Of a stretch of 64,000 nucleotides of DNA, positions 1 to 58,425 are shown one piece after another (position 1 is the first letter of the stretch; each line of letters starts with the position of its first letter). The notes below the pieces were generated by a model. That model was not told where the DNA came from. It did no database searches and saw nothing but the letters and a program-made list of their open reading frames with translations. Where the stretch lies: positions 71,982,001 through 72,046,000 of the forward strand of contig NC_083285.1 in NCBI RefSeq assembly GCF_963506605.1, given 5' to 3'. The position numbers and the translations under genes are program-made. Source of the DNA: Zootoca vivipara. Its lineage: Eukaryota.

Positions 1-1630
1 TCACTTTCACTAATAGTTGTTGTGAGGATCTTGGTTCTTGGCTTCTGTGAGTATAAGAAACTGCTAATCCACCTAAGACCACTTTCCAGATGTTTCCTTT
101 CAACATACAAACACCTGAAGACTCCCTTTTATGTTGGACTCCCTTTTCAGTTAGAAATCTTTCAAAGTTATTAGAGGTAAATTCACCTCCTCTGTTTGAC
201 TGCACTCCAGTTATCTTTGCATCATATTTTGCTTCCACCCAGTTTACAAAATTCGCAAACCTCTATTTAGCTTCTCCTTTAACAAATAAATGAACCCCAA
301 ATGCAAGAAATTGTCAACAATTATAAGATTAAATTTAGCTCCTCACAGAGTTTTCTGGAATGGATCTGCTCAATCTATATGCAGAAGTTCTAGAACTCGC
401 TTAGGATTTCTTTCACATTTTGTGTTAATTGGAGCTGTTGTTGATTTACACTCCCTCAGCATTTACAGAGTCTACCTTTACAATGTGGGCAGAGAAACAC
501 CCCCTTTTCCTCTGTAATTTTCTTTCTCTATCTGTAGATTTGTAATCCAAATGTTTCCTGGGGCAATTTCCTTTAAGGTGATTGCCTGATCCACAGTTGT
601 AGCACCTACAGATTCCATAAACTTTCAATGTGTTGTCACTCTTTCTTTCTTCTACATTCACTTCTTTATTTTGGCTTGTTGAAACAGCTCTCTGCCATCT
701 TCCCTTGCTCCTGTCTTCTTTCCCATTCATATAGTTGCTGCCTGCTGTTTTTCTCACGTGCAAATTCTTTAAAGTAGTCCAAACTTCTTCTGCAGTTAAC
801 AGCCCTCTAACAGTCAGTAACTGGCTGTCTTCCAGATCAATAATTATTGTGTCTCTTGCTCTCTCCTCTCTGTGAAGCCATTCAGGAGAAAGTAAAAGTA
901 AAAAAAGGTAAAGGACCCCTGGACAGTTAAGTCCAGTCAAAGGTGACTGTGGGGTTGCGGTGCTCATCTCGCTTTCAGGCCAAGGGAGCTGGCGTTTGTC
1001 CACAGACAGCTTTCCGGGTCATGTGGCCAACAGGACTATACCACTTCTGGTGCAACGGGACACTGTGACAGAAACCAGAGCGCATGGAAACACCATTTAC
1101 ATTCCTGCTGCGGCAATACCTATTTATCTACTTGCACTGGCATGCTTTCGAACTACTAGGTTGGCAGAAGCTAGGACATAATAATGGGAGCTCACCCCAT
1201 TAAGGGGATTCGAACTGCCGACCTTCTGATTGGCAAGCTCAAGAGGCTCAGTGGTTTAGACCACAGCGCCACCAGCTCCCTTCTCAGGAGAAGGAGGGTC
1301 TGAAGGTGGGTCATTCATACAGGGTCTCCAGAGCAGCATCTCCATCTTGGCACACCAACTGGCATAATTATTTTCTGTTAGTTTCTCCATACTCAGAGAC
1401 ACAGACATCATGAAACTTGCTTGCTTCCCTCCTGCAGTTAAACGTTCTGCAGCTTCCAAAACCACTTAGCCACATAGGATTCACAGACCCCCTTTGCCCC
1501 CGAGTTATCTGCAAAAATTTCCTTGACTGTGATGAGTTCAGATTGCTGGTTTCCAAAGTGTGGGGTTGATTTCAGGAATTCTCTTATTGCTCTCTAGTGC
1601 TACCTGCTGCCCACCCTGGGCCCATAACCT
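1..1630 (-). mobile_element. Degenerate, internally deleted Ty1/copia LTR retrotransposon (internal region)
   Basis: Minus strand shows a copia-type PBS GGTTATGGGCCCA (1617-1629), gag N-terminus MEKLTENNYASWCAKMEMLL, zinc knuckle CYNCGSGNHLKGNC, and integrase-core remnants (KITGVQSNRGGEFTSNNFERFLTEKGVQH) near 130-290, with stops and frameshifts. Confidence 0.8.
896..1280 (-). mobile_element. Sauria SINE inserted in copia gag
   Basis: Sauria SINE sequence (tRNA-like head, GGGGTCCTTTACCTTT tail); TSD TCAGGAGAA at 882-890 and 1284-1292. Confidence 0.85.
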
Positions 1631-1631
1631 T

Positions 1632-2242
1632 TGTTGGTTGTGCTTCTGCAGCACAGCAGGTTCCCCTCGGACCCCAGTGCTGAAGTAACCACTTCTCAGA
1701 GAGACTGAGGAAGATGAGTTTTTCATTCAGAGGTAGCATTTAGATGAGCCAACAGGCAACCAGTCTAATGTAAGGATTTAATACAAAGTCTCATTCTCTC
1801 ACATACAAGAGGGTGCAGTCCTTTAAGTACAAGAAAATGGTGCACTTGTTACAGGAGTCCAAGGTTGCTTGCCTGTCACTTTGTTCTCCTGGTAGCAGAG
1901 GATGCTTCCTAGCAGAAAGTTCTCCAGTCTCTTTCACTCTGCAGCAATTCACCCAGCCAGCTGTAATCCTCCTGCTGCAGGTCCCTGACAAAATGCTTGA
2001 CATTCACACTATCTCCTCAACCTCCGACAAACTCTGCATTATCCTCTCACACCCAACTCTACACCTCTGCTAGCTTGCATACACAGTTCCCTTTTAAGGA
2101 GACTGTTCACGAGAGTCACAAGACAAAACACACTGACTCAGAAGCTGGACCTTAGTTATAGCCACCTGTTTCACAGCTGTCGCAGTTAACTCCTTTATGT
2201 AATTTATCCTTTGTAAAACACAATGGTAACACATATACCAAC
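1632..2242 (-). mobile_element. Probable 5' LTR of the copia element
   Basis: Begins TGTTGG right next to the PBS and ends ...CCAACA; distal end uncertain because a SINE inserted there. Confidence 0.5.
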
Positions 2243-2271
2243 AATGTGTTGGTATATTGGTAACAATGGTT

Positions 2272-2630
2272 GGGACGCGGGTGGCGCTGTGGTCTAAACT
2301 GCAGAGCCTAGGGCTTGCTGATCAGAAGGTCAGAAGGTTGGCGGTTTGAATCCCCATGATGGGATGAGCTCCTGTTGCTTGGTCCCTGCTCCTGCCAACC
2401 TAGCAGTTCGAAAGCATGTCAAAGTGCAAGTAGATAAATATGTACCGCTTCGGTGGGAAGGTAAATGGCATTTCCGTGCACTGCTCTGGTTCGCCAGAAG
2501 CGGCTTTGCCATGCTGGCCACATGACCTGGAAGCTGTACGCCGGCTCCCTCAGCCAGTAAAGCGAGATGAGCGCCGCAACCCCAGAGTTGTTCGCAACTG
2601 GACCTAACGATCAGGGGTCCCTTTACCTTT
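2272..2630 (+). mobile_element. Sauria SINE, full length
   Basis: GGGACGCGGGTGGCGCTGTGG...GGGGTCCCTTTACCTTT; 13-bp TSD TATACCAACAATG at 2234-2246 and 2630-2642. Confidence 0.9.
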
Positions 2631-2668
2631 ATACCAACAATGACTTTTTGAGCAACCTTTTTGGAGAG

Positions 2669-3088
2669 TGTCAGGAGTATGGGCAGGAGTCAGGCTCTGG
2701 GGCCTGTAGTGCTTTGTAGGACTGGGGCCTGCCTCAGCTTGTGCTGGAGAAGCAAGGAGTGGCCACTCAGGTGAGGCCACTTGATACTCACTGCACCTGG
2801 TGGCAGGAACTGGGAGGGATAAAAGCTCAGTGTTTCCCTTCAGCTCTTTGCCACAGCAACGCTATTCCCGCCTTGTTGCATCTGGCCTCTTGCTCCTTGC
2901 TCCTTGGACCCTCGCCCTGCCGACGCCTTGCTCCTTGACTCCCAGACCTTCGCCTCCTCCTTGACCCTGCGACTGCCTGCTGCTGGACCCTCAGCCCTGC
3001 ACCTGTTCCTGCTTCTACACCACCATCTTGCCTCTGGTCCTGACGTCCTCAGCCAGGGCTTCAACCGCCCGCTGACCGGACTGTGACA
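2669..3088 (+). mobile_element. Solo LTR (420 bp)
   Basis: TGTCA...TGACA termini, 5-bp TSD GAGAG (2664-2668, 3089-3093), TATA-like GATAAAAG near 2818. Confidence 0.75.
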
Positions 3089-6625: not shown

Positions 6626-6801
6626 CAAAATAAAAATAAAATAGAAAAATTCCTTCCAGTAGCATCTTAAGAGACCAACCACGTTTGTGATTGGTATCTG
6701 AAGAAGTGTGCATGCACACGAAAGCTCATACCAATGACAAACTTAGTTGGTCTCTAAGTGCTACTGGAAGGAATTTTTCTATTTTATTTCTATTTTGTTT
6801 C
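6626..6801 (+). mobile_element. Penelope-derived fold-back mini-element with hammerhead (left part; tail resumes at 14744-14769)
   Basis: Inverted arms 6626-6697 and 6728-6800 around CTGAAGAAGTGTGCATGCACACGAAAGCTC; outer TSD CCATTTCCTAA at 6615-6625 and 14770-14780. Confidence 0.8.
6691..6734 (+). ncRNA. Minimal type I hammerhead ribozyme motif (Penelope-associated)
   Basis: Helix I TTGGTAT/ATACCAA, core CUGAAGA(+A), helix II GTGTGC/GCACAC, GAAA, palindromic AGCU helix III, predicted cleavage after C. Confidence 0.75.
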
Positions 6802-8799
6802 TTATAGCAAAATTCCAGCTTAAACTGAAGAAAGTAGGAAAACCCACTGGGCCAGTAAGATACAATCTGAATCAAATCCCTTATGAATTCACAGTGGAAG
6901 TGAGGAACAGGTTTAAGGATTTAGATTTGGTGGACAGAGTGCCTGAAGAACTATGGATGGAGGCTCGTAACATTATACAGGAGGCAGCAACGAAAACCAT
7001 CCCAAGGAAAAGGAAATGCAAGAAAGCAAAATGGCTGTCCAACGAGGCCTTACAAATAGCGGAGGAGAGGAGGCAAGCAAAATGCAAGGGAGATAGGGAA
7101 AGATACAGGAAACTGAATGCAGATTTCCAAAAAGCAGCAAGGAGAGACAAGAGGGTCTTCTTAAATGAGCAATGCAAAGAAATAGAGGAAAACAATAGAA
7201 TGGGGAAAACCAGAGATCTGTTCAAGAAAATTGGAGATATGAAAGGAACATTTCGTACAAAGATTACCATAATCAAGGACAAAAGTGGTAAGGACCTAAC
7301 AGAAGCAGAAGACATCAAGAAGAGGTGGCAAGAATACACAGAGGAATTATACCAGAAAGATATGGAGGTCTCGTACACCCCAGGTAGTGTGGTTGCTGAC
7401 CTTGAGCCAGACATCTTGGAGAGTGAAGTCAAATGGGCCTTAGAAAGCACTGCTAATAACAAGGCCAGTGGAAGTGATGATATTCCAGCTGAACTATTTA
7501 AAATTTTAAAAGATGATGCTGTTAAGGTGCTACACCCAATATGCCAGCAAGTTTGGAAAACTCAGCAATGGCCAGAGGATTGGAGAAGATCAGTCTACAT
7601 CCCAATTCCAAAGAAGGGCAGTGCCAAAGAATGCTCCAACTACCGCACAATTGCGCTCATTTCACACGCTAGCAAGGTTATGCTTAAAATTCTACAAGGC
7701 AGGCTTAGGCAGTATGTGGACCGAGAACTCCCAGAAGTGCAAGCTGGATTTCGAAAGGGCAGAGGAACCAGAGACCAAATAGCAAACATGCGCTGGATTA
7801 TGGAGAAAGCTAGAGAGTTCCAGAAAAACGTCTACTTCTGCTTCATTGACTATGCAAAAGCCTTTGACTGTGTCGACCACAGCAAACTATGGCAAGTTCT
7901 TAAAGAAATGGGAGTGCCTAATCACCTCATCTGTCTCCTGAGAAATCTCTATGTGGGACAAGAAGCTACAGTTAGAACTGGATATGGAACAACTGATTGG
8001 TTCAAAATTGGGAAAGGAGTACGACAAGGTTGTATATTGTCTCCCTGCTTATTTAACTTATATGCAGAATTCATCATGCGAAAGGCTGGACTAGATGAAT
8101 CCCAAGCCGGAATTAAGATTGCCGGAAGAAATATCAACAACCTCAGATATGCAGATGACACAACCTTGATGGCAGAAAGCGAGGAGGAATTAAAGAACCT
8201 TTTAATGAGGGTGAAAGAGGAGAGCGCAAATTATGGTCTGAAGCTCAACATCAAAAAACCAAGATCATGGCCACCGGTCCCATCACCTCCTGGCAAATAG
8301 AAGGGGAAGAAATGGAGGCAGTGAGAGATTTTACTTTCTTGGGCTCCTTGATCACTGCAGATGGTGACAGCAGTCACGAAATTAAAAGACGCCTGCTTCT
8401 TGGGAGAAAAGCAATGACAAACCTAGACAGCATCTTAAAAAGCAGAGACATCACCTTGCCGACAAAGGTCCGTATAGTTAAAGCTATGGTTTTCCCAGTA
8501 GTGATGTATGGAAGTGAGAGCTGGACCATAAAGAAGGCTGATCGCCGAAGAATTGATGCTTTTGAATTATGGTGCTGGAGGAGACTCTTGAGAGTCCCAT
8601 GGACTGCTAGAAGATCAAACCTATCCATTCTTAAGGAAATCAGCCCTGAGTGCTCCCTGGAAGGACAGATCGTGAAGCTGAGGCTCCAATACTTTGGCCA
8701 CCTCATGAGAAGAGAAGAATCCTTGGAAAAGACCCTGATGTTGGGAAAGATTGAGGGCACTAGGAGAAGGGGACGACAGAGGACAAGATGGTTGGACAG

Positions 8800-9227
8800 T
8801 GTGAGGGACAGGGGATATCGCGAAGTCCCTCCCCTCCTGAGTTCAAGCCCGTCCCCGAGCAAAGGGGAAAGCAGGGAGAGTTCCGATTCCAGTGGGGAAG
8901 CAGGAAGTCGTGTCCGAGGCTCAGGCAAGGTAGAGGAGCCAGGGTCCCAGGTGGGACAGGAAGGGGCAAGCAAGGGGGGAAGACCCATCCCTCCAACTCC
9001 AGAATTACGCAGGAAGAGGAGGGGCAAGAGGATGGGTCTGCCAAAGCTTTTGTGTTGGAGAAAGACGCGCCAAAAGCCATTAGGAGGTTCTGAAACCGAC
9101 TGACAACATCGCTCCGTGTAAATAGCAATGACTTGAGCACTGTAAATACGCAGCACCAATAAAAGAATAAAATGCAGAGCTGCGTAGCGTCGTTACTCTG
9201 AAGTAGTCCACTCCGGCCACTGTGACA
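8800..9227 (+). repeat. 5' LTR
   Basis: TGTGAGGG...TGTGACA; two AATAAA at ~9158-9172. Confidence 0.95.
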
Positions 9228-9269
9228 GCAACCTCCTAATCATTTTTGGGCTACTTCGGAGTTGCCGGG

Positions 9270-13400: not shown

Positions 13401-14488
13401 TCAGGGTGGGGGACAAGGTGTGGTTGTCCTCGGAGGGCCTTCCCACCAGAGGGAGGTGCAAAAAGCTGGCACCCAAAAGGCTGGGCCCCTTCACGGTCAC
13501 GCAACAGGTAAACCCGGTGGCATACAGGCTGGCACTGCCAGAGGACATGAGGGTGCATCCAGTGTTTCATAGATCGCTGCTGTCGCCGTACAGGGAAAGC
13601 AGCAGGCTCCGAGACAGCGAACAAACCCCCGAGGGAGGGGGGGAGAGGGAAGGCAGGGAGCAACTCAATGAGGCCACGGCCATCCTGGATTCAAGGTGGG
13701 GGGTGGGGGGACTGGAGTACCTCATGGCATGGGAGGATGCTCCACCGTCCCAGAATGAATGGGTCCCAGCCACTCAGATACAGGAGGAATTCTTGGTGGA
13801 AGAATTTCACGCCCTCTTTCCCCACAGACCCAAGCCCTGGCACATGGAAAGGGAGGGGGAGGAGGAGGAGGCACGGGAGAGCAGCTCACCATGGCGCTGG
13901 GAAGCGGAGTTTGAGGAACCAGAGGATGAGGTATGGGTGTCACCGAGATCCACCCAGTCAGAGGAAGGAGCAGATTGGCAGAACGTTTTTACCCCCACCA
14001 GCTCTGACGCCACGGACTTTTTGGGATTCCCGTCCGCCCAGGCGGAAGGGGGGGGCTCGCAGGACTGGGGGGAGGTATTCACACCAACGGGCTCGGAGAG
14101 CACTGAGTTCTTAGGCTTCCAGTCGTCACCGACACATGGGGGGGGCCTGGGGAGGGGTGAAGGAGAGCTTGGGAGGGGGGTGGATGTGAGGGACAGGGGA
14201 TATCGCGAAGTCCCTCCCCTCCTGAGTTCAAGCCCGTCCCCGAGCAAAGGGGAAAGCAGGGAGAGTTCCGATTCCAGTGGGGAAGCAGGAAGTCGTGTCC
14301 GAGGCTCAGGCAAGGTAGAGGAGCCAGGGTCCCAGGTGGGACAGGAAGGGGCAAGCAAGGGGGGAAGACCCATCCCTCCAACTCCAGAATTACGCAGGAA
14401 GAGGAGGGGCAAGAGGATGGGTCTGCCAAAGCTTTTGTGTTGGAGAAAGACGCGCCAAAAGCCATTAGGAGGTTCTGAAACCGACTGA
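10361..14488 (+). CDS. pol: Pol (protease-RT-RNase H-integrase-chromodomain), reached by -1 frameshift
   Basis: ALIDSGAS, YLVMPFGL, FLDDILIYS, ETDAS/TDHKNL, HHCC, DFITDLP/SDRG/QTNGQAE, GPF, chromodomain ILDSR..EYLMAW..NEW; frame open from the slippery site at 10361. Confidence 0.95.
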   Translation, partial: GKRESLAAGDKGQQPGTVSRQQPQPAHPHREEQSQPTPPRAGVVLEVTLTLPNGYPLTVLALIDSGASANFFSRSFAEEHQIQLLQLDFPLHVATIDGRELLGGAITHQTPPMRMTVGRHSETLAFNVTTISDPPIVLGMSWLARHDPSISWHQRCITFGSDFCLEHCMQHQPGEGPPIATVATMHIKGGEAIPKQYWDLQEVFSEAESDHLPPHRPFDCQINLVPGATIPPAKLYAMSDQELEDLRAFIDKNLKRGFIRESKAAGGSPVFWVDKKDTQQRRLVVDFRRLNSVTEPVAFPMPRVDDLLTAARRGKIFTKLDLRGAYNLIRIREGDEWKTTMFTPLGSFEYLVMPFGLQGGSACFQAFMHHVLGSLLFRKCLVFLDDILIYSNDPVQHVKDVREVLQRLKENHLYVKLEKCKFHTKEVDFLGYKLSDKGLAMDKDKVQAILDWHSPRTRKDAQRLLGFANFYRKFIKNFSRVTAPITDCLRGKQKFKWTPEAQAAFESLKRVFASDQNLFHVVQDAPLRIETDASEKAVGAILLQLDANREWRPCAFFSRKLTQPERNYTVFDRELLAIYAAFQHWRHFLVGAKHPIQVCTDHKNLEFWRTARVLNQRQIRWAEFFSNFNFSIHYIPGEQNVRADALSRKPEYMEEEAPPAPRHIFPPSAWSCGAAVVSEAELTALTAADEFANRIFRELRGGREQAKDFAERRGLLFYKGALYLPTTQLRRTVLKQMHDNPTAGHFGRDKTAHLVMRHFWWPGVREDVRDYVRGCTTCQRAKVVRAAPPGLLEPLATPHRPWEVVSMDFITDLPSSRGKTAVLVVVDLMSKMCHFIPCARAVSAEETAKLFVDHIFRLHGLPLRVISDRGRQFVSRFWRRLMNLLQVEVSLSTARHPQTNGQAERVNAILQQYLRCYVSQRQTDWVDRLPLAEFAYNNAVHVSTGVSPFKANYGRDLRSFPEREREEEEEEGPQAEDWAEELETVHQQLRDHLERAKEAYKKGADRHRRQGEVIRVGDKVWLSSEGLPTRGRCKKLAPKRLGPFTVTQQVNPVAYRLALPEDMRVHPVFHRSLLSPYRESSRLRDSEQTPEGGGEREGREQLNEATAILDSRWGVGGLEYLMAWEDAPPSQNEWVPATQIQEEFLVEEFHALFPHRPKPWHMEREGEEEEARESSSPWRWEAEFEEPEDEVWVSPRSTQSEEGADWQNVFTPTSSDATDFLGFPSAQAEGGGSQDWGEVFTPTGSESTEFLGFQSSPTHGGGLGRGEGELGRGVDVRDRGYREVPPLLSSSPSPSKGESRESSDSSGEAGSRVRGSGKVEEPGSQVGQEGASKGGRPIPPTPELRRKRRGKRMGLPKLLCWRKTRQKPLGGSETD

Positions 14489-14612
14489 CAACATCGCTCC
14501 GTGTAAATAGCAATGACTTGAGCACTGTAAATACGCAGCACCAATAAAAGAATAAAATGCAGAGCTGCGTAGCGTCGTTACTCTGAAGTAGTCCACTCCG
14601 GCCACTGTGACA
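14185..14612 (+). repeat. 3' LTR
   Basis: Matches the 5' LTR; preceded by a polypurine tract. Confidence 0.95.
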
Positions 14613-14789
14613 GACAGTGTTCTCGAAGCTACGAACATGAGTTTGACCAAATTGCGGGAGGCAGTGGAAGACAGGAGTGCCTGGCGTGCTATGGTCCATG
14701 GGGTCACGAAGAGTCGGACACGACTAAACGACAATTTTGTTTCAACGGCAGACAAACACGGCTACCTAACCATTTCCTAATGAACTTTT

Positions 14790-19099: not shown

Positions 19100-19226
19100 G
19101 GTCCAGTGTATTTTGAAGATGTAGCTACTTGTTTCACAGATGAGGAGTGGGCGTTGCTGGATCCTGACCAGAGAGCTCTGCCTAAGGAAGTCATGGAGGA
19201 GAATCGGGGGATCTTGGGCTTTCTTG
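19100..19226 (+). CDS. KRAB-A exon of KRAB-ZNF gene
   Basis: ttttag acceptor, 127-bp exon [42 protein letters not shown], gtaagg donor; phase 1 joins in frame to 23891. Start-codon exon not identified. Confidence 0.88.
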
Positions 19227-19382
19227 GTAAGGCTTGGTTGGATCATAATATCTGTTTTTAAATTCAAGACCTATATCTATGTGATGAACTTCCCACTTAC
19301 ACAATCTGGGATTCTAACACCCCGCACAGCTTACCTCGAATGGAAGGCTATCTACCGCTTTTCTGTGATTATTCTTCCTCCA

Positions 19383-21337
19383 TAGTTCTGGTTACAGGTA
19401 GGTAGCCGTGTTGGTCTGGATCGAAGTAAAATAAAAAAATTCCTTCAGTAGCACCTTAAAGACCAACTAAGTTTTTATTTTGGTATGAGCTTTCGTGTGC
19501 ATGCACACTTCTTCAGATACAGTGAAATGGAAGTTTCCAGGCACTTATGTAGAGAAGGGGTGGGGAGGGGTGGGGATGGGGAGGGGGGATCACTCAGAAG
19601 GGTGGTGGAAATGGGTGATTGACTGACTGATAGCTGTTGATGACCGCAAACGACTGCAAATGGTTTTGCATGAAAAAGCAAGGGTTGAGATGGCTGAAGA
19701 TCGCTTATCATGTATAATGAGATAAGAACCCGATATCTCTGTTCAAACCAGGTCCCTCCATGGTTTTGAGCTTGGTGATAAGTTGCAATTCAGCAACTTC
19801 TCTTTCCAGTCTATTTCTGAAATTCTTTTGTAGTAAGACAGCTACTTTGAGATCTTGTATAGAATGTCCTGGGAGATTGAAGTGTTCTCCTACTGGTTTT
19901 TCTGTCTTCTGGTTCCTGATGTCAGATTTATGTCCATTTATCCTTTGGCGTAGGGTTTGGCCTGTTTGTCCAATATAGAGAGCTGAAGGGCACTGTTGGC
20001 ATTTGATGGCATACACAATGTTAGAGGATGAGCAATTAAATAGTCCTGAGATGGTATGTTGGATGTTGTTGGGGCCAGTAATGGTGTTGTCTGGGTGTAT
20101 GTGGCAGCAAAGTTGGCATCTGGGTTTATTGCAGGCTCTGGTACCAGTGTCCATGTTAAGTCTGGTGGTTGTATTATTGTGGGTGAGGAGTTGTTTAAGA
20201 TTGGGTGGCTGTCTGTAGGCAATGAAAGGTCTTCCTCCCAGAGCTTGAGAAAGGGAGCGGTCATTGTCCAGGAGAGGCTGTAGATCTCTGATGATGCGTT
20301 GTACTGTTTTAGCTTGGGAGCTGTATGTGATGACTAGTGGTGTTCTGTTATTTTCTTTTTTGGGTCTGTCTTGCAGCAGGTTCTCTCTAGGTATCTGTCT
20401 GGCTCTGTTGATCTGTTGTTTAACTTCATCAGGTGGATATTTTAGTTCTAAAAAGGTTTGCTGTAGATCTCTTAGGTGAGATTCTCTGTCTGTAGAGTTG
20501 GAACAGATGCGGTTGTAACGTAAGGCCTGGCTGTATACGATGGATTGTTTGGTATGTTTGGGATGGTAGCTAGAAGCATGTAGATATGTTTGTCTGTCAG
20601 TTGGTTTTCTGTATAAGGTGGTGTCTATACGTCCATCCTGTATTTTTATAGTAGTGTCCAAAAAATGTATTTCTTGCATAGATTGGTTCATTGTTAGGTT
20701 GATGGTGGGGTGAAAGTCATTGAATGTCTGGTGGAAGGTTTCCAGGGTCTGTTGTCCATGTGTCCAGATAATAAAAATATCGTCAATGTATCGCAGGTAC
20801 AGGAGAGGTTTGAGTGGGTAGGAGTTAAGGAAACGTTGTTCTAAATCTGCCATGAAGATGTTGGCATACTGTGGGGCCATGCGGGTGCCCATGGCTGTGC
20901 CGCTGATCTGGAGGAACAGGTCATCACCAAATTTGAAGTGGTTGTGGGTAAGGACAAAGTGGCAGAGTTTGGTAGCAAAGTCCGCTGTGGTTTTATCTGA
21001 AATGGTGTTCCTTATGGCTTGTAAACCATCATTGTGTGGGATGTTGGTATATAGAGATTCCACATCCATAGTGGCTAGTATAGTATTGTTAGGAAGATTG
21101 TTCAAATATTGTATTTTCCTCAGAAAATCTGTGGTGTCACGTACGTAGCTGGGAGCACTAATAGCATATGGTTTCAGAACAGAGTCCATATAGCCGGAAA
21201 CACCCACTGTAATGGTGCCAATACCTGAGATGATGGGGCGTCCTGGGTTTCCTGGTTTGTGTATTTTGGGTAGAAGATAGAAAGTTCCTGGCCGAGGTTC
21301 CGCTGGTGTGTTTGTGAGGATCTGTTCTTGGATGTGT
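19383..21337 (-). mobile_element. Penelope-like element (Neptune-type), 5'-truncated, left arm of palindrome
   Basis: ORF to 19708 with RT (MDVESLYTNIP, GTAMG, RYIDD), Cys-rich linker, GIY-YIG (VYAIKC..LYIGQT); 3' region with hammerhead at 19483-19520. Confidence 0.93.
19483..19520 (-). ncRNA. Minimal hammerhead ribozyme motif
   Basis: Reverse complement of GTATCTGAAGAAGTGTGCATGCACACGAAAGCTCATAC. Confidence 0.7.
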
Positions 21338-21359
21338 ACACATCCAAGAACAGATGTGT

Positions 21360-23267
21360 ACACATCCAAGAACAGATCCTCACAAACACACCAGCGGAAC
21401 CTCGGCCAGGAACTTTCTATCTTCTACCCAAAATACACAAACCAGGAAACCCAGGACGCCCCATCATCTCAGGTATTGGCACCATTACAGTGGGTGTTTC
21501 CGGCTATATGGACTCTGTTCTGAAACCATATGCTATTAGTGCTCCCAGCTACGTACGTGACACCACAGATTTTCTGAGGAAAATACAATATTTGAACAAT
21601 CTTCCTAACAATACTATACTAGCCACTATGGATGTGGAATCTCTATATACCAACATCCCACACAATGATGGTTTACAAGCCATAAGGAACACCATTTCAG
21701 ATAAAACCACAGCGGACTTTGCTACCAAACTCTGCCACTTTGTCCTTACCCACAACCACTTCAAATTTGGTGATGACCTGTTCCTCCAGATCAGCGGCAC
21801 AGCCATGGGCACCCGCATGGCCCCACAGTATGCCAACATCTTCATGGCAGATTTAGAACAACGTTTCCTTAACTCCTACCCACTCAAACCTCTCCTGTAC
21901 CTGCGATACATTGACGATATTTTTATTATCTGGACACATGGACAACAGACCCTGGAAACCTTCCACCAGACATTCAATGACTTTCACCCCACCATCAACC
22001 TAACAATGAACCAATCTATGCAAGAAATACATTTTTTGGACACTACTATAAAAATACAGGATGGACGTATAGACACCACCTTATACAGAAAACCAACTGA
22101 CAGACAAACATATCTACATGCTTCTAGCTACCATCCCAAACATACCAAACAATCCATCGTATACAGCCAGGCCTTACGTTACAACCGCATCTGTTCCAAC
22201 TCTACAGACAGAGAATCTCACCTAAGAGATCTACAGCAAACCTTTTTAGAACTAAAATATCCACCTGATGAAGTTAAACAACAGATCAACAGAGCCAGAC
22301 AGATACCTAGAGAGAACCTGCTGCAAGACAGACCCAAAAAAGAAAATAACAGAACACCACTAGTCATCACATACAGCTCCCAAGCTAAAACAGTACAACG
22401 CATCATCAGAGATCTACAGCCTCTCCTGGACAATGACCGCTCCCTTTCTCAAGCTCTGGGAGGAAGACCTTTCATTGCCTACAGACAGCCACCCAATCTT
22501 AAACAACTCCTCACCCACAATAATACAACCACCAGACTTAACATGGACACTGGTACCAGAGCCTGCAATAAACCCAGATGCCAACTTTGCTGCCACATAC
22601 ACCCAGACAACACCATTACTGGCCCCAACAACATCCAACATACCATCTCAGGACTATTTAATTGCTCATCCTCTAACATTGTGTATGCCATCAAATGCCA
22701 ACAGTGCCCTTCAGCTCTCTATATTGGACAAACAGGCCAAACCCTACGCCAAAGGATAAATGGACATAAATCTGACATCAGGAACCAGAAGACAGAAAAA
22801 CCAGTAGGAGAACACTTCAATCTCCCAGGACATTCTATACAAGATCTCAAAGTAGCTGTCTTACTACAAAAGAATTTCAGAAATAGACTGGAAAGAGAAG
22901 TTGCTGAATTGCAACTTATCACCAAGCTCAAAACCATGGAGGGACCTGGTTTGAACAGAGATATCGGATTCTTATCTCATTATACATGATAAGCGATCTT
23001 CAGCCATCTCAACCCTTGCTTTTTCATGCAAAACCATTTGCAGTCGTTTGCGGTCATCAACAGCTATCAGTCAGTCAATCACCCATTTCCACCACCCTTC
23101 TGAGTGATCCCCCCTCCCCATCCCCACCCCTCCCCACCCCTTCTCTACATAAGTGCCTGGAAACTTCCATTTCACTGTATCTGAAGAAGTGTGCATGCAC
23201 ACGAAAGCTCATACCAAAATAAAAACTTAGTTGGTCTTTAAGGTGCTACTGAAGGAATTTTTTTATT
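21360..23267 (+). mobile_element. Penelope-like element (Neptune-type), 5'-truncated, right arm of palindrome
   Basis: Reverse complement of the left arm; ORF ends 22989; TSD ATTATTCTTCCTCCA at 19368-19382 and 23265-23279 flanks the pair. Confidence 0.93.
23177..23214 (+). ncRNA. Minimal hammerhead ribozyme motif
   Basis: GTAT-CTGAAGA-A-GTGTGC-AT-GCACAC-GAAA-GCTC-ATAC. Confidence 0.7.
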
Positions 23268-23868
23268 ATTCTTCCTCCAGTTATGCCTTTTTAATCATGA
23301 TCAGGCTGAACTTCTTAGTCCTTTTTTGATGGGGAAGTGGAAGTAGCTTCTGTCCGGTTTTTTGTTTTTGCTTCCGTCAGTTTTTGGTTGACCAAAGAGA
23401 CAATTGACTTTGGAGATGGAGTGGATTTCATGAGCCAAACAAAATCCATCCCAGGAACGAGCCAGACTTTTCAAATCTCAGGTTCCCATAAATATGTCAG
23501 TGAATGCCAGGCAATAAAGGCAGTGAACCCTATAGTACAGACAGAGCTTGCCAAACTTTTCATATTGGTGACACATTTTTTGGGACATGCATCATTTTGC
23601 AACACAGTAATTCAGTTTTGCATCATTTCGTGACACAGTAATTCAGTTTTACAAGCAACTAACCCCTTTCTAGCCCCAGGAGGAGCGTGGGATGTGTTTG
23701 TGCAAAAGAGCTACACACTGCAGTTGATACGCTAATATGTCGCAGAACACAGTTTGGAAAGCTCTGTAGTAAGACCTCATGACTAATGCCCCTCAGTTCT
23801 TCCTCTATCACAAGTGTTCATTAGCATTGTTCAATAATTTGGGGCTCCATTTCTTCCTGAGGCTCTAA

Positions 23869-25719
<1,851 letters not shown>

Positions 25720-26761: not shown

Positions 26762-27095
26762 CTGGTCTGAATAGAGACATTGGATTCTTATAAATTATAC
26801 ATCTCACCCCTTGCTTTTTCCTGTAAGACCAATTGCAGTTGTTAACAGTCGTCAACAGGCTTACCACACCTATCAGCGAATCACCCATTCCCACCACCCT
26901 TCTGAGTAATACCCCTCCCCACCCTCTCACTAAATATAAGGGCCTGGTGACTTTTGTTTCTGTGTATCTGAAGAAGTGCATGCACGTGAAAGCTCATACC
27001 AATGACAAACTTAGTCGGTCTCTAAGGTGCTACTGGAAGGAATTTTTTAATTTTGTTTCGACTATGGCAGACCAGCACGGCTACCTACCTGGAAC
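26762..27095 (+). mobile_element. Penelope 3' fragment with degenerate hammerhead
   Basis: End of ORF (GLNRDIGFL), 3' region, CTGAAGAAGTGCATGCACGTGAAAGCTCATACC, GGCTACCTACCTG tail. Confidence 0.85.
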
Positions 27096-28316: not shown

Positions 28317-29758
28317 CTAGCCAGGGATCCCCAAACCCACTTGCTCCCTAGACCTTCTTGGAGGTCCCAGTTTCTGCCTCTAGCCGGGAGTCTGCCACAA
28401 GACTCTTTGATCGTTCTTACCGCTGAGACATGAGGTGATTTGGTCTCTCTGAATTGCTGTACTGTGCCCCTGCACTTACAGTGTTACAATTTCTCAACTG
28501 CCCACATTGAAATTTTCATCAGTTTTATCATCTGCATCCCAGCAGAGAGATTCAATCCAAACTGGATCTCTCTCAGTTCCTCTTGGCTTTCTCCCCCTTG
28601 ATAAGTTTAAAAGCTGCTCTGCCACCGTTTTTATTTTTGGTGCCAGCAGTAGTCTGGTTCTATCCCTGGTTGAAGGGGAGCCTGCCCCTTTTCTACAGGC
28701 CCAGCTTGCCCCAGCTTGTTTCTCAGTGCCTAACAAATCCAAACTCCTCCTCCTGACCCCACCGTCTCCTCCACACATTAAGACCACAGAGTCTGCCTGG
28801 CTTTGTGGCATGGAACTGGCAGCATTTCAGAGAAAGCTACCTTGCAGGTCCTGGCTTCCAGTATCCTATTGAGCAACCTAAATTTGGCTCCTAGGACCTT
28901 GTGACTACATCTTCCCATGTCTTTGGTGCTAACATGCCCCATAACCACTGACTCCTCCCCAGTACTATCTAGCCAGGCTATCTAGGTGACAAGCGACCTC
29001 CTCAGCTCTTGCACCAAGCAGGCAATCTGGCCTGCAGTCTGTCCATTCATTGCATATCCAACTATGTAGATTCTGAGTGATTTCCCTGTCTCCCTGCAAA
29101 GTGAGCTGGAGTCTGGCTAGAGGAACAGTGGGCATGGTATCATGATAGGGGATAAATTTCTCATTCCAGATGTTACCAGAAAGATGATGGTTAATTGCAG
29201 GCAGATGTTTCCATAGTATCCAGCGACCAGGTGGCTCATCAAGGCAAGACAGTTTGAGCATATCACACAGATCCTAGCCTGACTGCCCTGGCTGCCATTT
29301 AGTTTCCAGGCCCAATTCAGAGCGCTGATTTTAACCTATAAAGCCTTAAATGGCACCTAACACCAGAGAAAATGGCCATTTTTAAAGCTCAAGCACAGAG
29401 ACATGGGGTCAGAAGGGCCCTGGGTCGTTCTCTGTCCAAGCACAGCAGTTCTGCTCCTAGCCAGACTACTCTTTTGCTGCAGTACGTGGGCATTTATGAC
29501 TGCAGTGGGAAATTTATGGTCTCACCCATCATGCACCTGATCCCCATTGACCAACCCTGCTTAAACCCAGCAGTGCCCTTTAACCTAAGAGGAGAGATGT
29601 GTGTTGGTTGATCTAGCTATCTTGTGGTACCACATCTGTCATTTGAGTTCCCCCCTCACCTGACAGCTTCAGGAAGGCAGTTGCATCTGATGCAGGGAGA
29701 AAGGGCACAGCCTCTTCCTCAGCACTGCAGACCTGGTCCTTTGAAGGGATAATAGACT

Positions 29759-29852
29759 CTGAAGAAGTGTGCATGCACAAGAAAGCTCATACCAATGACA
29801 AACTCAGTTGGTCTCTAAGGTGCTACTGGAAGGAGTTTTTTTTATTTTGTTT
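29759..29852 (+). mobile_element. Short Penelope end beginning at the hammerhead core
   Basis: TCTGAAGAAGTGTGCATGCACAAGAAAGCTCATACC...GCTACTGGAAGG. Confidence 0.75.
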
Positions 29853-37174: not shown

Positions 37175-37334
37175 AAAGCAACATAAAAAGATTCCTTCCA
37201 GTAGCACCTTAGAGACCAACTAAGTTTGTCATTGGTACAGTATGAGCTTTCATGTGTCTCTAAGGTGCTACTGGAAGGAATTTTTTAATTTTGTTTCGAC
37301 TACGGCAGACCAACACGGCTACCTACCTGTAACT
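37175..37334. mobile_element. Penelope fold-back mini-element
   Basis: Inverted copies of the Penelope end, partial hammerhead at the centre, GGCTACCTACCTGTAAC tail on the right. Confidence 0.8.
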
Positions 37335-45507: not shown

Positions 45508-48500
45508 TTTATACCCCCCCCCCCACCATCTGGCATACATCACTCTGGTGAGACTGTGGGCAGGGGGGATCTCAGCCTGCGTACCAGATGGAGCTGGTAG
45601 ACAGCTGCCCTGGACACAGAACTGACCTGTGCCTCCATGGACAGTTGGGAGTCCAAAATGTCTCCCAGGCTGCGCACCTGGTCCTTCAGGGGCAGAGTTA
45701 CCCCATTCAGGACCAGGGAGCCCCACACACCTGCCCACCCCCTTTGGCTGATTAAACAATCTAGAGCCTTTTAAACAATAATAATATTATAATATTAACA
45801 ATAATAGTATTAACAATAATAATGACAGGAATGGACAGATTTGTCCTCCGTTGTTGCTTCTGTGAACCAGTGACAAGGCAGGTCTCCCAAGCATGCTGGC
45901 CTCACCTTCTGGACTGCAGGGAGCCTGGTCCCTCCGAGATGGCTGGTGGGTCAGGGCAACAAGAGAGAAGCCCGAGGTTGTTGAGGTGGGCAAAGCAAGG
46001 CTAGGCCTGTCCCTGGTCTTCGCTTATTAGAACAGAGACACAAGTTGGAATGTCTTGGGGGTGGGTGGCAATAGGAATGTAGTGATAAGGTGGGGAATGA
46101 GGTTTCTAAGTGAGGGTGTGGATTGCAGTGGGAGAATGGGAACTGAAGGGAGACAAACGGGTTGCTCCCTTCAAAAACACAACCCATTCTCTTTGGGAAA
46201 TCGCAGAGACCTTTTGTTAGCCTTCTGTATGACACCAAGTTGCTTACCACTGCAGGAGATTCTGCATCCATTGGCTGTTTCGCCCTGTTGATTGTCACAC
46301 CAATAGCGGCTGTTTATTTGAAAAACCCCATAGTCCTGACTGCCATCTGTGTTTGGTGGCCCCACAGCACTACTTTCGTATTTGCTTTCATGGTAAGCTG
46401 TGCAGATCCCTGGAACAAAGTGAGAAGGGAAAGGGCAGAGGAGAGAGGAAACAACTTGAAAGCATTCTCTCAGTTAACTGTAGCAAATGTGTGTGACTTA
46501 AAAACAAAACAGCACTGAAAAGAAACATTTAGAGGTTATGCATTGGATTCAGGCAAAGCCTGAACAGAACTTGACTAATCTGGGCTTTCGCCAAGAATGA
46601 GTGGAGGCAGCCCTGGACTGCTGCAGATATGGGGCTATTGGCTGGGGCATCAAGCAGGGAGAAGGAGAGGCAGGGAACTCTAACACAGGGGTCTGCAAAC
46701 TTTTTCAGCAGGGGGCTGGTCCACTGTCCCTCAGACCTTTGGGGGGGGCGGACTATATATATATATATTTTGGGGGGGATGAAAAAATTCCTATGCCCCA
46801 CAAATAACCTAGAGATGCATTTTAAATAAAAGGACACATTCTACTCATGTAAAAACACGTTGATTCCTGGACCGTCTGGGCCGGATTGAGAAGGCGATTG
46901 GGCCACATCCAGCCCCTGGGCCTTAGGTTGCCTACCCATGCCCTAGCACTTGTAAACCAGCACCCAGGAGAAATGAATCCTCCGTTTATCAGCTGATGAG
47001 CAAAGGATTTGATGCTGCTGTGCTCTGGAGTATTGTGCTTTGCAAAGCAGCCCCCCCCCCGACTGAATCCTCAATGAAGTTGGAAGCAGAGAGGAGACAT
47101 AGCTCTTAGAATCACAGAATGATAGAAGTGTAGAGTTGGAAGAATCATCTAGTCCAACCCCCTGCAGTGCTAAAGTATCCATGGCCATCCAACCTCTGCT
47201 TAAAAACTCCCTATAAACTCCCTTCATGGATCAATGCCTTGTCGTGGCGAAGGGGCTTGAATAACTCAGAGAAGCTATGAGCTATGCCATGCAGGGCCAC
47301 CCAAGATGGACAGGTCATAGTGGAGAGTTTTGACTAAACGTGATCCACCTGGAGAAGGAACTGGCAAGCCACTCCAGTATCCCTGCCAAGAAAACTCCAT
47401 GGACAAAGACAACAGGCATATAAAAGTTATGACGCTGGAAGATGAGCCCCTCAGGTCGGAAGGCGTCCAACATGCTACTGAGGAAGAGCGGAGGACAAGT
47501 ACAAGTAGATTCAGAGCTGATGAAGCGGCTGGGCCAAAGCCGAAAGGACGCTCAGTTGCGGATATGCCTGGAAGCGAAAGGAAAGTCCGATGCTGTAAAG
47601 AAAAATATTGCATAGGAACCTGGAATGTAAAATTTTTAAAAGATGATGCTGTTAAGGTGCTACACCCAATATGCCAGCAAGTTTGGAAAACTCAGCAATG
47701 GCCAGAGGATTGGAGAAGATCAGTCTACATCCCAATTCCAAAGAAGGGCAGTGCCAAAGAATGCTCCAACTACCGCACAATTGTGCTCATTTCACACGCT
47801 AGCAAGGTTATGCTTAAAATTCTACAAGGCAGGCTTAGGCAGTATGTGGACTGAGAACTCCCAGAAGTGCAAGCTGGATGTCGAAAGGGCAGAGGAACCA
47901 GAGACCAAATAGCAAACATGTGCTGGATTATGGAGAAAGCTAGAGAGTTCCAGAAAAACGTCTACTTCTGCTTCATTGACTATGCAAAAGCCTTTGACTG
48001 TGTCGACCACAGCAAACTATGGCAAGTTCTTAAAGAAATGGGAGTGCCTGATCACCTCATCTGTCTCCTGAGAAATCTCTATGTGGGACAAGAAGCTACA
48101 GTTAGAACTGGATATGGAACAACTGATTGGTTCAAAATTGGGAAAGGAGTACGACAAGGTTGTATATTGTCTCCCTGCTTATTTAACTTATATGCAGAAT
48201 TCATCATGCGAAAGGCTGGACTAGATGAATCCCAAGCAGGAATTAAGATTGCCGGAAGAAATATCAACAACCTCAGATATGCAGATGACACAACCTTGAT
48301 GGCAGAAAGTGAGGAGGAATTAAAGAACCTATTAATGAGGGTGAAAGAGGAGAGCGCAAAATATGGTCTGAAGCTCAACATCAAAAAAACCAAGATCATG
48401 GCCACTGGTCCCACCACCGCCTGGCAAATAGAAGGTGAAGAAATGGAAGCAGTGAGAGATTTTACTTTCTTGGGCTCCTTGATCACTGCAGATGGTGACA

Positions 48501-50485
48501 GCAGTCACGAAATTAAAAGACGCCTGCTTCTTGGGAGAAAAGCAATGACAAACCTAGACAGCATCTTAAAAAGCAGAGACATCACCTTGCCGACAAAGGT
48601 CCGTATAGTTAAAGCTATGGTTTTCCCAGTAGTGATGTATGGAAGTGAGAGCTGGACCATAAAGAAGGCTGATCGCCAAAGAATTAATGCTTTTGAATTA
48701 TGGTGCTGGAGGAGACTCTTGAGAGTCCCATGGACTGCTAGAAGATCAAACCTATCCATTCTTAAGGAAATCAGCCCTGAGTGCTCCCTGGAAGGACAGA
48801 TCGTGAAGTTGAGGCTCCAATACTTTGGCCACCTCATGAGAAGAGAAGAATCCTTGGAAAAGACCCTGATGTTGGGAAAGATTGAGGGCACTAGGAGAAG
48901 GGGACGACAGAGGACCAGATGGTTGGACAGTGTTCTCGAAGCTACGAACATGAGTTTGACCAAACTGCGGGAGGCAGTGCAAGACAGGAGTGCCTGGCGT
49001 GCTATGGTCCATGGGGTCACGAAGAGTCGGACACGACTAAACGACTAAACAACAACAAACAACATAAAGGAGATTCCTCTACCTTCTGAGGGAGACTGTT
49101 CTACTGTCAAACAGCTCTTACCATCAGTACTAGTTACAGGTAGGTAGCCATATTGGTCTGATGCAGTCAAAACAAAATAAAAATAAAAAAATCCTTCCAG
49201 TAGCACCTTAGAGACCAACTATGTTTGGCATAGGTATGAGCTGGTATTTGAAGAAGTGTGCATGCACACGAAAGCTCATACCTATGGCAAACTTAGTTGG
49301 TCTCTAAGGTGCTACTGGAAGCTCTTACCATCAGGAATCACTTCTCCTTTCTTGTAACTTGAATCCATTGGTTTGGGTTCTACTCTCTGGAGCAGGAGTG
49401 AACAAGCTTGCTCCATCTTCCATGGGACAGCCCTTTAGATATTTGAAGACAGCTATCATATCTTCTCTCAGTCTCCACTTATCCAGGCCAAACATACCCA
49501 ACTCCCACAACCATTCCTCATAAAGCTTGGTTTCCAGATCCTTGGTGATCTTGCTCGTGAATATCCAACTTGTGAATATCCTTCTTAAATTGTGGTGCCC
49601 AGAGCTGGACACAGTGGAGCATACTAGTTGGGTAAGAGAGCTGGAGGGGTGGATCACATCTGGCAATCAATGTTCCCCTTTGCTTTCAGATAGTACATGG
49701 GTTGTTGTTTGTTGTTGTTTAGTCGTTTAGTCGAGTCCGACTCTTCATGACCCCATGGACCAGAGCACGCCAGGCACTCCTGTCTTCCACTGGCTCCCGC
49801 AGTTTGATCAGACTCATGTTGGTGGCTTCGAGAACACTGTCCAACCATCTTGTCCTCTGTCGTCCCCTTCTCCTAGTGGTTCCCTCGCTACGAGAAGCCA
49901 AGTTACAGGGAACCAGGCAGAGGGCCTTCTCGGTGGTGGCACCCACCCTGTGGAATGCCCTCCCACCAGAGGTCAAAGAGAACAACAATTACCAGACCTT
50001 TAGAAGGCATCTCAAGGCAGCCCTGTTTAGGAAAGCTTTTAATGTTTGATTTCTGTATTTTAATGTTTTGTTGGAAGCCGCCCAGAGTGGCTGGGGGAAC
50101 CTGGCCAGATGGGCGGGGTATAAATAAATTATTATTATTATTAACAATCCAGGGGTCCTTTACTTCTTTTTTTATTGGCATTATTTTCTGCACTCCCACC
50201 CCACTAGTATGTTTAATTAGGGTTTCAAAAACTCCAGTTAAACTTTAGCCTCAAACTGAAAATGATTCTGGGCTGAATCCTGGTTGGGCAGGATTTGTCC
50301 CCAAACACCTAAAATGGCCAAGATTGAGGGAAAGGAAGAGCAAACTCACAGTCGGCCAGGCTGATGCCGTGGTATTGATCCAGTCCATGCTGTTTCAGAA
50401 GTGCAGCCAGTTCACATTTCTCAAACACTTTGCCTTCCTTCACTGAAATGAGGAGGCAGAAGAGCGTGAGGACCAAAACCTTCAT
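41153..50485 (-). CDS. c-type lysozyme paralog B (147 aa, calcium-binding type, acidic); exons 50485-50350, 46409-46248, 43902-43824, 41219-41153
   Basis: Exons of 136/162/79/67 bp splice to MKVLVLTLFCLLISVKEG-KVFEKCELAALLKQHGLDQYHGISLADWICTAYHESKYESSAVGPPNTDGSQDYGVFQINSRYWCDNQQGETANGCRISCSAFTDDNITDDIECAKTVVRDPQGMDAWVAWKNHCKGKDLSEWTIGCSL; catalytic E and D intact; AATAAA at 40917-40912. Confidence 0.94.
42909..43249 (-). mobile_element. Sauria SINE
   Basis: Near full-length match to the other copies. Confidence 0.88.
45475..45735 (-). mobile_element. L2-type fragment
   Basis: LKDQVRSLGDILDSQLSMEAQVSSVSRAAVYQLHLVRRLR; (CAA)n adjacent. Confidence 0.75.
46686..46940 (+). mobile_element. hAT MITE, same family as 33039-33293
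   Basis: Shared internal sequence; degenerate TSD CTCTAACA/CCCTAGCA. Confidence 0.8.
47226..49064 (+). mobile_element. RTE-BovB LINE with 5' end retained and endonuclease region deleted
   Basis: 5' UTR plus MTLEDEPLRSEG...IGTWNV joined directly to KFLKDDAVKVL (~47630); stop at 47852; RT to 49048; (CAA)n tail. Confidence 0.93.
49066..49625 (-). mobile_element. CR1 3' fragment (3' terminus at ~47105-47210), interrupted by BovB and a Penelope mini-element
   Basis: LGMFGLDKWRLREDMIAVFKYLKG; AGAATC-type terminal repeats near 47110. Confidence 0.8.
49128..49319. mobile_element. Penelope fold-back mini-element with hammerhead (C3>U)
   Basis: Inverted arms; 15-bp TSD AGCTCTTACCATCAG at 49113-49127 and 49320-49334. 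Confidence 0.85.
49700..50143. mobile_element. BovB 3' end (minus, 49700-49876) abutting an L2-type 3' end (plus, 49877-50143)
   Basis: (TTG)n tail with RTRWLDSVLEATNMSL; L2 3' end with (TTA)n tail. Confidence 0.8.
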
Positions 50486-51695: not shown

Positions 51696-51795
51696 GTATA
51701 TCTGAAGAAGTGTGCATGCACACGAAAGCTTATACCCAGAACAAACTTAGTTGGTCTCTAAGATGCTACTGGACAAAAAAATTGAATATATAATT
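51696..51795 (+). mobile_element. ~100-bp Penelope hammerhead insertion
   Basis: Begins GTATATCTGAAGAAG; 16-bp TSD CAGCCATGAACAATGT at 51680-51695 and 51796-51811. Confidence 0.85.
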
Positions 51796-52560: not shown

Positions 52561-53456
52561 GTACTTTGAAATTATGTACACATTTTTGAAAGCATTTTCC
52601 TCTAATAGAAGGCATTTTTGTATGTTATTTTCACTAATACATTAATCTTTATGCACACTTTCTTTAATATATGCATTTTTGCAAACCTTGGTTGGAGAAG
52701 TGCAACACAACATTCAGGTAAGGGCAGATTTCAAAGGGTACCTGTGTTTCAATTTGTGTACTGTGTCATAAGGTGTGAATAGATTTGTCTTTAAAATGCT
52801 AATGAAATTGAATACCTCCCCCCATTCCTACTGGAGACCGGTAACATCAACCCTCCAAGTTTCCCTATTTTCCAGGGATGTCCAAGTTTTACAGAAGTTG
52901 TCCCAGTTTCTGATTTGATCCTAGAATGTCCCGCTTTTCCTTAGGGTGCCCCTATTTTATCAGAGAAATGTTGGAGGGTATGGAGTTACCCAACCCTTGA
53001 GCCATCTGAATAGTATAGGGACTTTAAAAAAATGTTTAATGTTTTATTATGTTTTTATATGTCTTGGAAGCTGCCCAAAGTGGCAACCCAGTCAGTTGGG
53101 TGGGGTATAAATAGTAAAATTCTTATTCTTATTCTTATTCTTGAATAGGACATCTCTATTTTCATCAGAGAAATGCTGAAGGGTGTGTAACATTTCCCCA
53201 AAGAAAGCTGAAGGCATTTCAAAAGAGGGATCATTTCTTGTAACATGCAACACTCCCTTACATCCAGTTTCACCAGCTTGTTCAGGTGTTTTTTGGGTTT
53301 TTTTCCATTGTTGCAAAACCTGAATGAACAGTCTATTTCCAATGTGCCACTTTTGCATGTGTTCATTCCTAAGTCCTTTCTTCTCTGTTGCCTTATTTGC
53401 CTTAAAAAATTCCACAAACCTTCATATTTAAACATATCTCTGAACATATTGACCTA

Positions 53457-53545
53457 AAATAAAAAAATACCTTCAGTAGCACCTTAAAGACCAACTAAGT
53501 TTTTATTTTGGTATGAGCTTTCGTGTGCATGCACACTTCTTCAGA
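53457..53545 (-). mobile_element. 89-bp Penelope hammerhead insertion
   Basis: Begins TCTGAAGAAG on the minus strand; 11-bp TSD ATATTGACCTA at 53446-53456 and 53546-53556. Confidence 0.85.
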
Positions 53546-57814: not shown

Positions 57815-58425
57815 AGTTCTCTTTCTCAAGCTCTGGGAGGAAGACCTTTCATTGCCTACAGACAGCCACCCAATCTTAAACAACTTCTCACCCACAATAA
57901 TACCACCACCAGACTTAACATGGACACTGGTACCAGAGCCTGCAATAAACCCAGATGCCAACTTTGCTGCCACATACACCCGGACAACACCATCACTGGC
58001 CCCAACAACATCCAACATACCATCTCAGGACTATTTAATTGCTCATCTTCTAACATTGTGTATGCCATCAAATGCCAACAGTGCCCTTCAGCGCTCTATA
58101 TTGGACAAACAGGCCAAACCCTACGCCAAAGGATAAATGGACATAAATCTGACATCAGGAATCACAAGACAGAGAAACCAGTAGGAGAACACTTCAATCT
58201 CCCAGGACATTCTATACAAGATCTCAAAGTAGCTGTCTTATTACGGAAAATTTTCAGAAACAGACTGGAAAGAGAAGTTGCTGAATTACAACTCATTACC
58301 AAGCTTAAAACCATGGAGAGACCTGGTCTGAATAAGGACATTGGATTCTTATCTCATTATACTGTACATGATAAAGCTTTCTTCGGCCATCTCACCCCAT
58401 GCTTTTTCCTGCAAGACCAATTGCA
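57815..58425 (+). mobile_element. Penelope fragment (linker plus GIY-YIG)
   Basis: Near-identical to 22445-23040. Confidence 0.92.

Follow-up and report, generated by a model that had tools for sequence, protein, structure and literature searches.

A 64,000-nucleotide stretch of the Zootoca vivipara genome (contig NC_083285.1, positions 71,982,001 to 72,046,000; hereafter the window) carries, within an intron of a KRAB-zinc-finger gene, two head-to-head copies of a 5'-truncated Penelope-like element (PLE) that together form an almost perfect palindrome. We find that this palindrome is a single, real, young and polymorphic insertion, and that it is a typical member of a common class, the ordinary product of a very active family. 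From its structure and that of its sister copies, we think it somewhat probable that both nicked target ends primed complementary DNA (cDNA) and that the products were joined in mid-insert, one cDNA folding back to meet the other.

A near-perfect palindrome within one target-site duplication

The insert mirrors about an axis at coordinate sum 42697. Its stems (19430-21344 and 21353-23267) are 1,915 bp each and pair at every position but one, where 19729 C stands opposite 22968 A, and an unpaired loop of 8 nt (21345-21352) lies at the mirror centre. A preliminary description of the window had proposed head-to-head arms of one reverse transcriptase (RT)/GIY-YIG element truncated at an equal point, a single arm mismatch, one 15-bp target-site duplication (TSD) around the pair and an end tail of about 45 nt on the left arm only. 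This architecture was borne out in each respect (Table 1): the first nucleotide of both arms is position 1076 of a 3,030-bp unit, and the tail measures 47 nt. The tail is the longest among 45 measured tailed ends, whose mode is unit position 3023; it ends with the first base of the start codon of the following unit and shares a 4-nt microhomology, TGGA, with the TSD. The final 3 nt of the tailless arm (ATT) are also common to the TSD.

At the apex, the insert folds without a loop on a native TA at 21337-21338, continues for 17 further sense nucleotides and then restarts via a GAT microhomology, leaving in the assembly a 22-nt tandem duplication (21334-21355 and 21356-21377). What the preliminary description took for a minimal spacer between the arms is this fold and restart. 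The native sequence reads CTACCCC on one side of the break and TACACATCC on the other, and the GTG that precedes TACAC in the insert is non-native. A native 8-bp palindrome, GTGTACAC, was considered as having forced the apex and was rejected because this GTG is not native. Rfam matches to microRNA precursors at the apex did not reach the gathering score and are attributable to the hairpin.

A contig of another sample, run X15, shows the insertion to be real and polymorphic: it covers 19219-19382 and continues with the letters from 23280 on, so that its site is empty and has a single TSD. This provides the empty-allele genotype that the preliminary description had called for. Run X15 comes from another study than run X1, and the genotype rests on one contig in one of four runs; runs X20 and X21, sampled at about 6%, are without depth over 19278-19367, and X1 is without the intron there. 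The arms are 99.7-99.9% identical to an intact tandem unit elsewhere in the genome (L040), with two or three differing positions only, and this identity together with the empty allele supports the earlier suggestion that the insertion is young.

We consider it highly improbable that a read or assembly fold-back artefact doubled a single-arm insertion. Chimeric long reads do give zero-loop folds, and the apex is known from the assembly only. However, the mirror ends at the family-typical start site and excludes the flank, the right arm carries its own allele, and the structure recurs elsewhere, flanked at 46 loci by TSDs of 11-16 bp. The TSD and the unique flanks are moreover continuous with the empty allele, which agrees with the single insertion event, as opposed to a folded read, that had been argued from the letters of the window.

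Table 1. Coordinates of the mirror insert, its element and its host gene in the window
Feature	Position	Strand	Basis
Target-site duplication, left copy, 15 bp, ATTATTCTTCCTCCA	19368..19382		sequence; single in empty allele
Target-site duplication, right copy, ATTATTCTTCCTCCA	23265..23279		sequence
One-sided 47-nt tail, unit 2985-3031	19383..19429	-	mapping to the 3,030-bp unit
Tailed arm, unit 1076-3031, alleles 1254T, 1819A, 2685G	19383..21338	-	mapping to the unit
Tailless arm, unit 1076-2984, alleles 1254T, 1819A, 2685A	21359..23267	+	mapping to the unit
Apex joint with 22-nt tandem duplication, net 8-nt loop 21345-21352	21334..21377		assembly sequence alone
5'-truncated open reading frame (ORF), open, about residues 359-901 of the intact protein; mirrored at 19708-21339, minus strand	21358..22989	+	translation
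Hammerhead-like core, CTGAAGA, stem, GAAA, in the pseudo-long terminal repeat (pLTR); mirrored at 19491-19516	23181..23206	+	motif; passages of PMC4209133
KRAB-A exon of host KRAB-zinc-finger gene	19101..19226	+	Pfam KRAB, E 9e-16
Host intron, GT..AG	19227..23890	+	sequence; 4,664 nt with insert, 767 nt without
C2H2 zinc-finger exon of host gene	23891..25718, end approximate	+	about 20 zf-C2H2 matches; 84-bp repeats

Mirrors recur across the family

Sister copies were surveyed in a positional sample drawn from the 895 occurrences of an internal 40-mer of the element in the assembly. The first 100 of these matches, which take in the whole of contig C1 and 29 Mb of C2, gave 83 loci; a locus enters the sample if it has an arm of at least about 650 nt. 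To these were added 15 loci chosen by likeness to the insert arm, the insert included, and six chosen by the 2685A allele; the added loci are biased and were kept out of frequencies, and with them the head-to-head loci total 52. Two old or internal fragments (L139, L195) were left out of the head-to-head set, and the more diverged L208 out of the variant counts. A pLTR-probe sample, of which 60 of 69 regions were used, served descriptively, and four of its regions entered the positional census.

A head-to-head layout was found at 31 of the 83 positional loci. Nine of these have an apex that is symmetric to within 40 nt; permutation gave 1.3 such loci on average and in none of 20,000 shuffles as many as 9. 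Scaled up from 9 of 83 loci, the assembly, with roughly 740 long loci, would hold about 80 symmetric mirrors. Among all 52 head-to-head loci, 17 are near-symmetric. Eight sampled mirrors are longer than the window insert, at 4.0-5.6 kb and about 8.2 kb, and another, L031, equals it in length and has no loop. The description of a whole-insert mirror of this length as extreme is thus not supported by the positional sample. Nor was its expected instability shown: among head-to-head loci, long mirrors occur at 0-1 of 8 with 2685A and 9 of 29 without (Fisher p 0.16-0.40), so that age-dependent loss of mirrors between the 2685A and the other head-to-head loci is not significant.

The ends of these insertions are as regular as their layout. 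Exactly one end is tailed at 29 of the 31 positional and 50 of the 52 total head-to-head loci; two tails occur at none, and no tail at two. Tailed ends fall within unit 3011-3031 and all 46 measured tailless ends within 2970-2988, and insert junctions across loci have 0-5 nt of microhomology. There are also 43 single-arm copies, 19 of them tailed and 24 tailless.

L031 (2811-6678; C13:22.127-22.131 Mb) is a 3.8-kb zero-loop palindrome that folds on the same TA as the window insert, without the duplication, and in the assembly only these two fold there. Its single arm mismatch, 2155A, is a common family allele and lies on the tailless arm. Derivation of one locus from the other was rejected, as flanks, TSDs (15 bp in the window, 13 bp in L031) and tail ends differ; because TSD, tail end and haplotype (1254T/1819A in the window insert, 1269T/2018G in L031) are all distinct, we regard L031 as an independent insertion. 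Unit 1076 was likewise rejected as a truncation hot spot: only two loci begin there, and two other pattern matches are point variants that continue upstream. RNA around the position folds weakly (-9.5 kcal/mol over 140 nt), and the chance that another of the approximately 80 mirrors would share the site is about 3-20%, which argues weakly for a hot spot.

Several sister copies have structures of their own. The approximately 8.2-kb mirror is L147 (425-8617; C1:27.745-27.753 Mb), in which each arm is longer than one full unit and so spans a complete ORF region, and further family pieces abut both mirror ends. The centre joints of L033, L046, L049, L054 and L061 contain locally templated insertions of 14-47 nt, sometimes iterated, which we take to be like polymerase-theta joints. 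At L188 (2194-2390), a 110-nt piece of the pLTR-ORF junction is captured between arms with a symmetric apex (1263/1263). One arm of L124 (1525-2870) is stepped, much as serial template skips would leave it, by a repeated loss of about 22-36 nt and a single loss of 90 nt. L110 (2466-4888) consists of four tandem 598-bp mini-units, each joining the 3' end to the first 79 nt of the ORF, and is possibly a non-autonomous, retrozyme-like derivative.

Probable priming at both target ends

The window insert combines a TSD and an empty allele with one tailed and one tailless end, a rare haplotype shared by its arms (1254T occurs at three places in the assembly, two of them these arms) and a fold-plus-restart apex. 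A staggered nick, dual priming, fold-back and a meeting of cDNAs are the steps likely to have produced it. In the sequence of events that we propose, a staggered 15-nt double nick would open the target, and priming would occur at each nick, at the tail start site for one cDNA and about 45 nt inside it for the other. One cDNA would stop at unit 1076, fold back on the TA and slip once, giving the 22-nt duplication. The folded cDNA would then serve as its own template as far as the cDNA primed at the other nick. This second cDNA would be the source of the distal part of one arm, and that part would come from a different family RNA. The fold-back step could be carried out by the RT or by host end-joining.

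The census points to priming of both target ends on RNA. Single-arm copies use both ends alone, so the tailless end serves as a start site in its own right and is more than a place of run-off. At 21 of 37 asymmetric loci it is the shorter arm that bears the tail, and 8 of the 12 looped near-symmetric loci have a further-reaching arm that is tailless and therefore cannot have templated the other arm's tail. These same counts make fold-back by itself insufficient. Pure self-priming, in which one strand folds back, copies itself and joins the target by microhomology, does fit the window locus taken alone, with the tailed arm made first, the TA fold and a jump to the target via ATT 47 nt before the end. 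A self-priming reading of junction palindromes close to this, on an antisense template, is given in part of the published work on PLEs (PMC3846280). Yet across the family tails occur on arms that cannot be copies of the other arm, the tailless end keeps to its narrow range and is also used by solo copies, and a family allele on one arm goes unexplained. As a family-wide rule pure self-priming is largely refuted, and we judge it improbable.

The two arms are also coupled, because of the excess of symmetry and because 35 of 56 variant sites are shared between arms, against 2.7% for arms paired across loci. A strong rival to fold-back is that two full cDNAs, one from each nick and copied from the same RNA or from two RNAs moved together by a dimer, run off at an equal point and are joined at the centre by microhomology end-joining with templated insertion. 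Dual priming without fold-back accounts for the haplotypes shared between arms, for their symmetry and for the one-of-each tail; a common RNA 5' end fits the loci whose arms are symmetric modulo one tandem unit (L172 2728/2738, L164 2890/2889), and junctions with 1-6 nt overlaps and local templated insertions are in keeping with it. However, one RNA cannot yield a common family allele on a single arm, as found at the window locus, L031, L160 and L210, two RNAs of separate origin would not have 1254T and 1819A in common, and distal-only mismatches are not predicted. We hold this explanation to be unlikely, if a serious one.

Fold-back with a second cDNA is favored instead, since the mismatch is a family allele, mismatches elsewhere tend to be distal, and two mirrors jump to a shorter piece away from the apex. 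The A at 22968 is 2685A, a common allele with 562 exact 41-mer matches, present at 25 of 104 loci, and the lone mismatch would be explained because the distal part of that arm would derive from another family RNA. Arm mismatches match alleles of other loci in 5 of 21 cases, against 0.1-1 expected. At 8 of the 10 loci that are informative they lie distal to all shared variants, where 3.9 such loci would be expected (p 0.009). At L188 and L211, the mirror extends 80-115 nt from the apex and then jumps to a shorter distal piece.

Several considerations weigh against this combined reading. Finished insertions cannot reveal event order, and the apex joint is read from the assembly alone. The 714A shared by the arms of L036 is also present at a third locus; shared rare alleles can be source haplotypes and so give no proof of self-copying, and the idea that shared private variants are first-strand RT errors was not supported by the one tested, this same 714A. 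The distal-mismatch test covers 10 loci only, and L155 and L170 contradict it. The mismatch in the window could also have arisen by gene conversion, recurrent mutation or assembly consensus error. Finally, the anole element studied in vitro is of the Poseidon clade, whereas the window element has a Neptune/Nematis linker, and its priming proceeds without target homology (PMC11167929), in contrast to the 0-5 nt of microhomology at these junctions.

One further explanation is that all head-to-head copies were born as perfect mirrors whose centres were later trimmed or homogenised by palindrome repair, the window insert being unrevised. Central revision of long palindromes occurs in the mouse germ line, although our literature search did not return it, and such repair would account for the shared alleles in asymmetric pairs and for the central microhomologies. 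On the other hand, zero divergence is frequent among asymmetric pairs (L037, L047, L076), many second arms are only 20-80 nt, the mirror loss in the 2685A group is not significant, and the explanation concerns asymmetric loci, not the origin of the window locus. We therefore consider it very improbable.

Generalizing from dual priming with fold-back, we tentatively suggest that PLEs may integrate by obligate two-ended priming, in which a dimer has one subunit at each RT start site and the first cDNA can snap back and copy itself until it meets a second cDNA from the other nick, possibly of another RNA. By this means the family would have written about 80 multi-kilobase, near-perfect palindromes into a living vertebrate genome, each recording the first-made strand.

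The element, its host gene and known systems

Both the arm and the intact 901-aa ORF of L040 match PF00078 (RT) and PF01541 (GIY-YIG) above cut-offs, and the single ORF has the RT followed by a C-terminal GIY-YIG endonuclease, as in endonuclease-bearing (EN+) PLEs. A zinc-finger linker between the two (CNKPRCQLC at residue 761) has the form CX2-5CxxC, and the endonuclease has the CCHH motif (C805xxC...H...H). The ORF of the insert retains the RT, the CX4CxxC linker and the GIY-YIG domain with CCHH, while the N-terminus and the DKG motif are missing. In the sections of PMC8557442 consulted here, CCHH in the endonuclease is a feature of EN+ PLEs, and Neptune and Nematis have the CX2-5CxxC linker that Penelope and Poseidon lack. 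By these features, the element is an endonuclease-bearing PLE of the Neptune/Nematis linker type, the linker excluding the Penelope/Poseidon clade.

Tandem 3,030-bp units form the pLTRs at L039/L040 and at other loci. The L039/L040 array (C2:103.027-103.037 Mb) has three complete, identical units with intact ORFs and a 5'-truncated fourth, and is likely of the active source type; further tandem arrays lie at L048, L057 and L204. As a vertebrate element, the family is presumably Neptune rather than Nematis. An exact 42-mer of the insert's pLTR occurs 12,882 times in the assembly, across several subfamilies. An Rfam search of the insert gave no hammerhead match at E<=1, beside the visible hammerhead-like core motif.

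Pfam matches recovered both the KRAB exon and the C2H2 array, confirming the KRAB-zinc-finger intron that the preliminary description had named as the insertion site. The intron boundaries are set by a contig of run X1, which joins 19226 to the letters from 23891 on (the kind of run is guessed; RNA or a retrocopy), and past the acceptor frame 2 is open for 608 aa. At 19182, in the KRAB exon, the window has C where nearly all mapped reads and contigs have A, through paralogue mapping or as an allele. The palindrome is a dead, 5'-truncated copy that would place a 1.9-kb hairpin in the host pre-mRNA, and it permits the effect of such an intronic hairpin on a KRAB-zinc-finger transcript to be measured. 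AATAAA motifs, at which polyadenylation might occur prematurely, stand at 19430, 20770, 22567 and 23218.

Elsewhere in the window are older, short head-to-head stubs of related subfamilies (6634-6793, 37176-37333, 49121-49317), a 93% internal fragment of the element family (57818-58426) and solo pLTR pieces (26800-27095, 29758-29848, 51699-51771 and 53455-53545, the last at 99% and apparently flanked by a short direct repeat). An identical 429-bp direct repeat occupies 8800-9228 and 14185-14613, one copy of which adjoins a 1.3-kb repeat (7496-8802) that is itself 98% identical to 47625-48933.

The value of the locus is that it marks an extremely young burst, with many copies 99.9-100% identical, intact tandem sources and a polymorphic insertion. 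Such a burst makes the finish of PLE integration, the final steps of which have been called yet to be validated (PMC11167929), and the origin of head-to-head repeats with a one-sided tail testable from sequence alone. Polymorphic multi-kilobase palindromes also permit the stability of such structures in a vertebrate germ line to be measured directly.

Our literature search returned neither a census of PLE mirrors in the kilobase range nor an explicit two-ended model of PLE integration; subscription papers (e.g., Arkhipova 2006; Evgen'ev and Arkhipova 2005) and supplements may hold such. The nearest parallel outside PLEs is twin priming of L1, in which, in the portions of the accounts used here (PMC11702581, 10.1101/2024.08.27.596794), both target ends prime, inverted segments are joined by microhomology and a TSD is kept. 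In L1, however, annealing of the second primer takes place within the RNA, and the pieces are adjacent and nearly non-overlapping (PMC11702581, 10.1101/2024.08.27.596794). A twin-priming product of the L1 type was rejected, as both arms cover unit 1076-2984; here each begins at the 3' end and spans the stretch that the other spans, which gives a mirror.

Among PLEs, PAc (Poseidon, Anolis carolinensis) nicks and extends both strands in vitro, with two RT start sites bounding the tail, and is predicted to form a dimer (PMC11167929). The window family resembles it in having two 3' end classes about 40 nt apart, in the proposed cutting and extension of both target strands and in its tandem source arrays. 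Unlike in PAc, where the start sites lie 111-118 nt inside the ORF, they are here just upstream of the ORF start; the main text of that study does not discuss inverted insertions (PMC11167929).

That inverted segments are known for PLEs, as the preliminary description stated, is confirmed by the published layout. As set out in parts of the Pen2a_Av report (PMC3846280) and of a general scheme (PMC8557442), the EN+ insertion unit comprises an inverted pLTR or 5'-truncated copy, an optional one-sided tail of 30-40 bp and a TSD. The window insert has the inverted 5'-truncated copy, the one-sided tail and the TSD, and its tail is, by those passages, the published PLE 'tail' and no quirk. As in the Pen2a_Av unit there described, the layout is head-to-head, with a single TSD around the insert, a tail at one end and a palindromic inverted junction. 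It departs from the units shown in those passages, in which the inverted part is a pLTR of about 180-210 bp or a 5'-truncated copy not further specified, in its 1.9-kb arms that reach into the RT, their equal start nucleotide and the 47-nt length of the tail.

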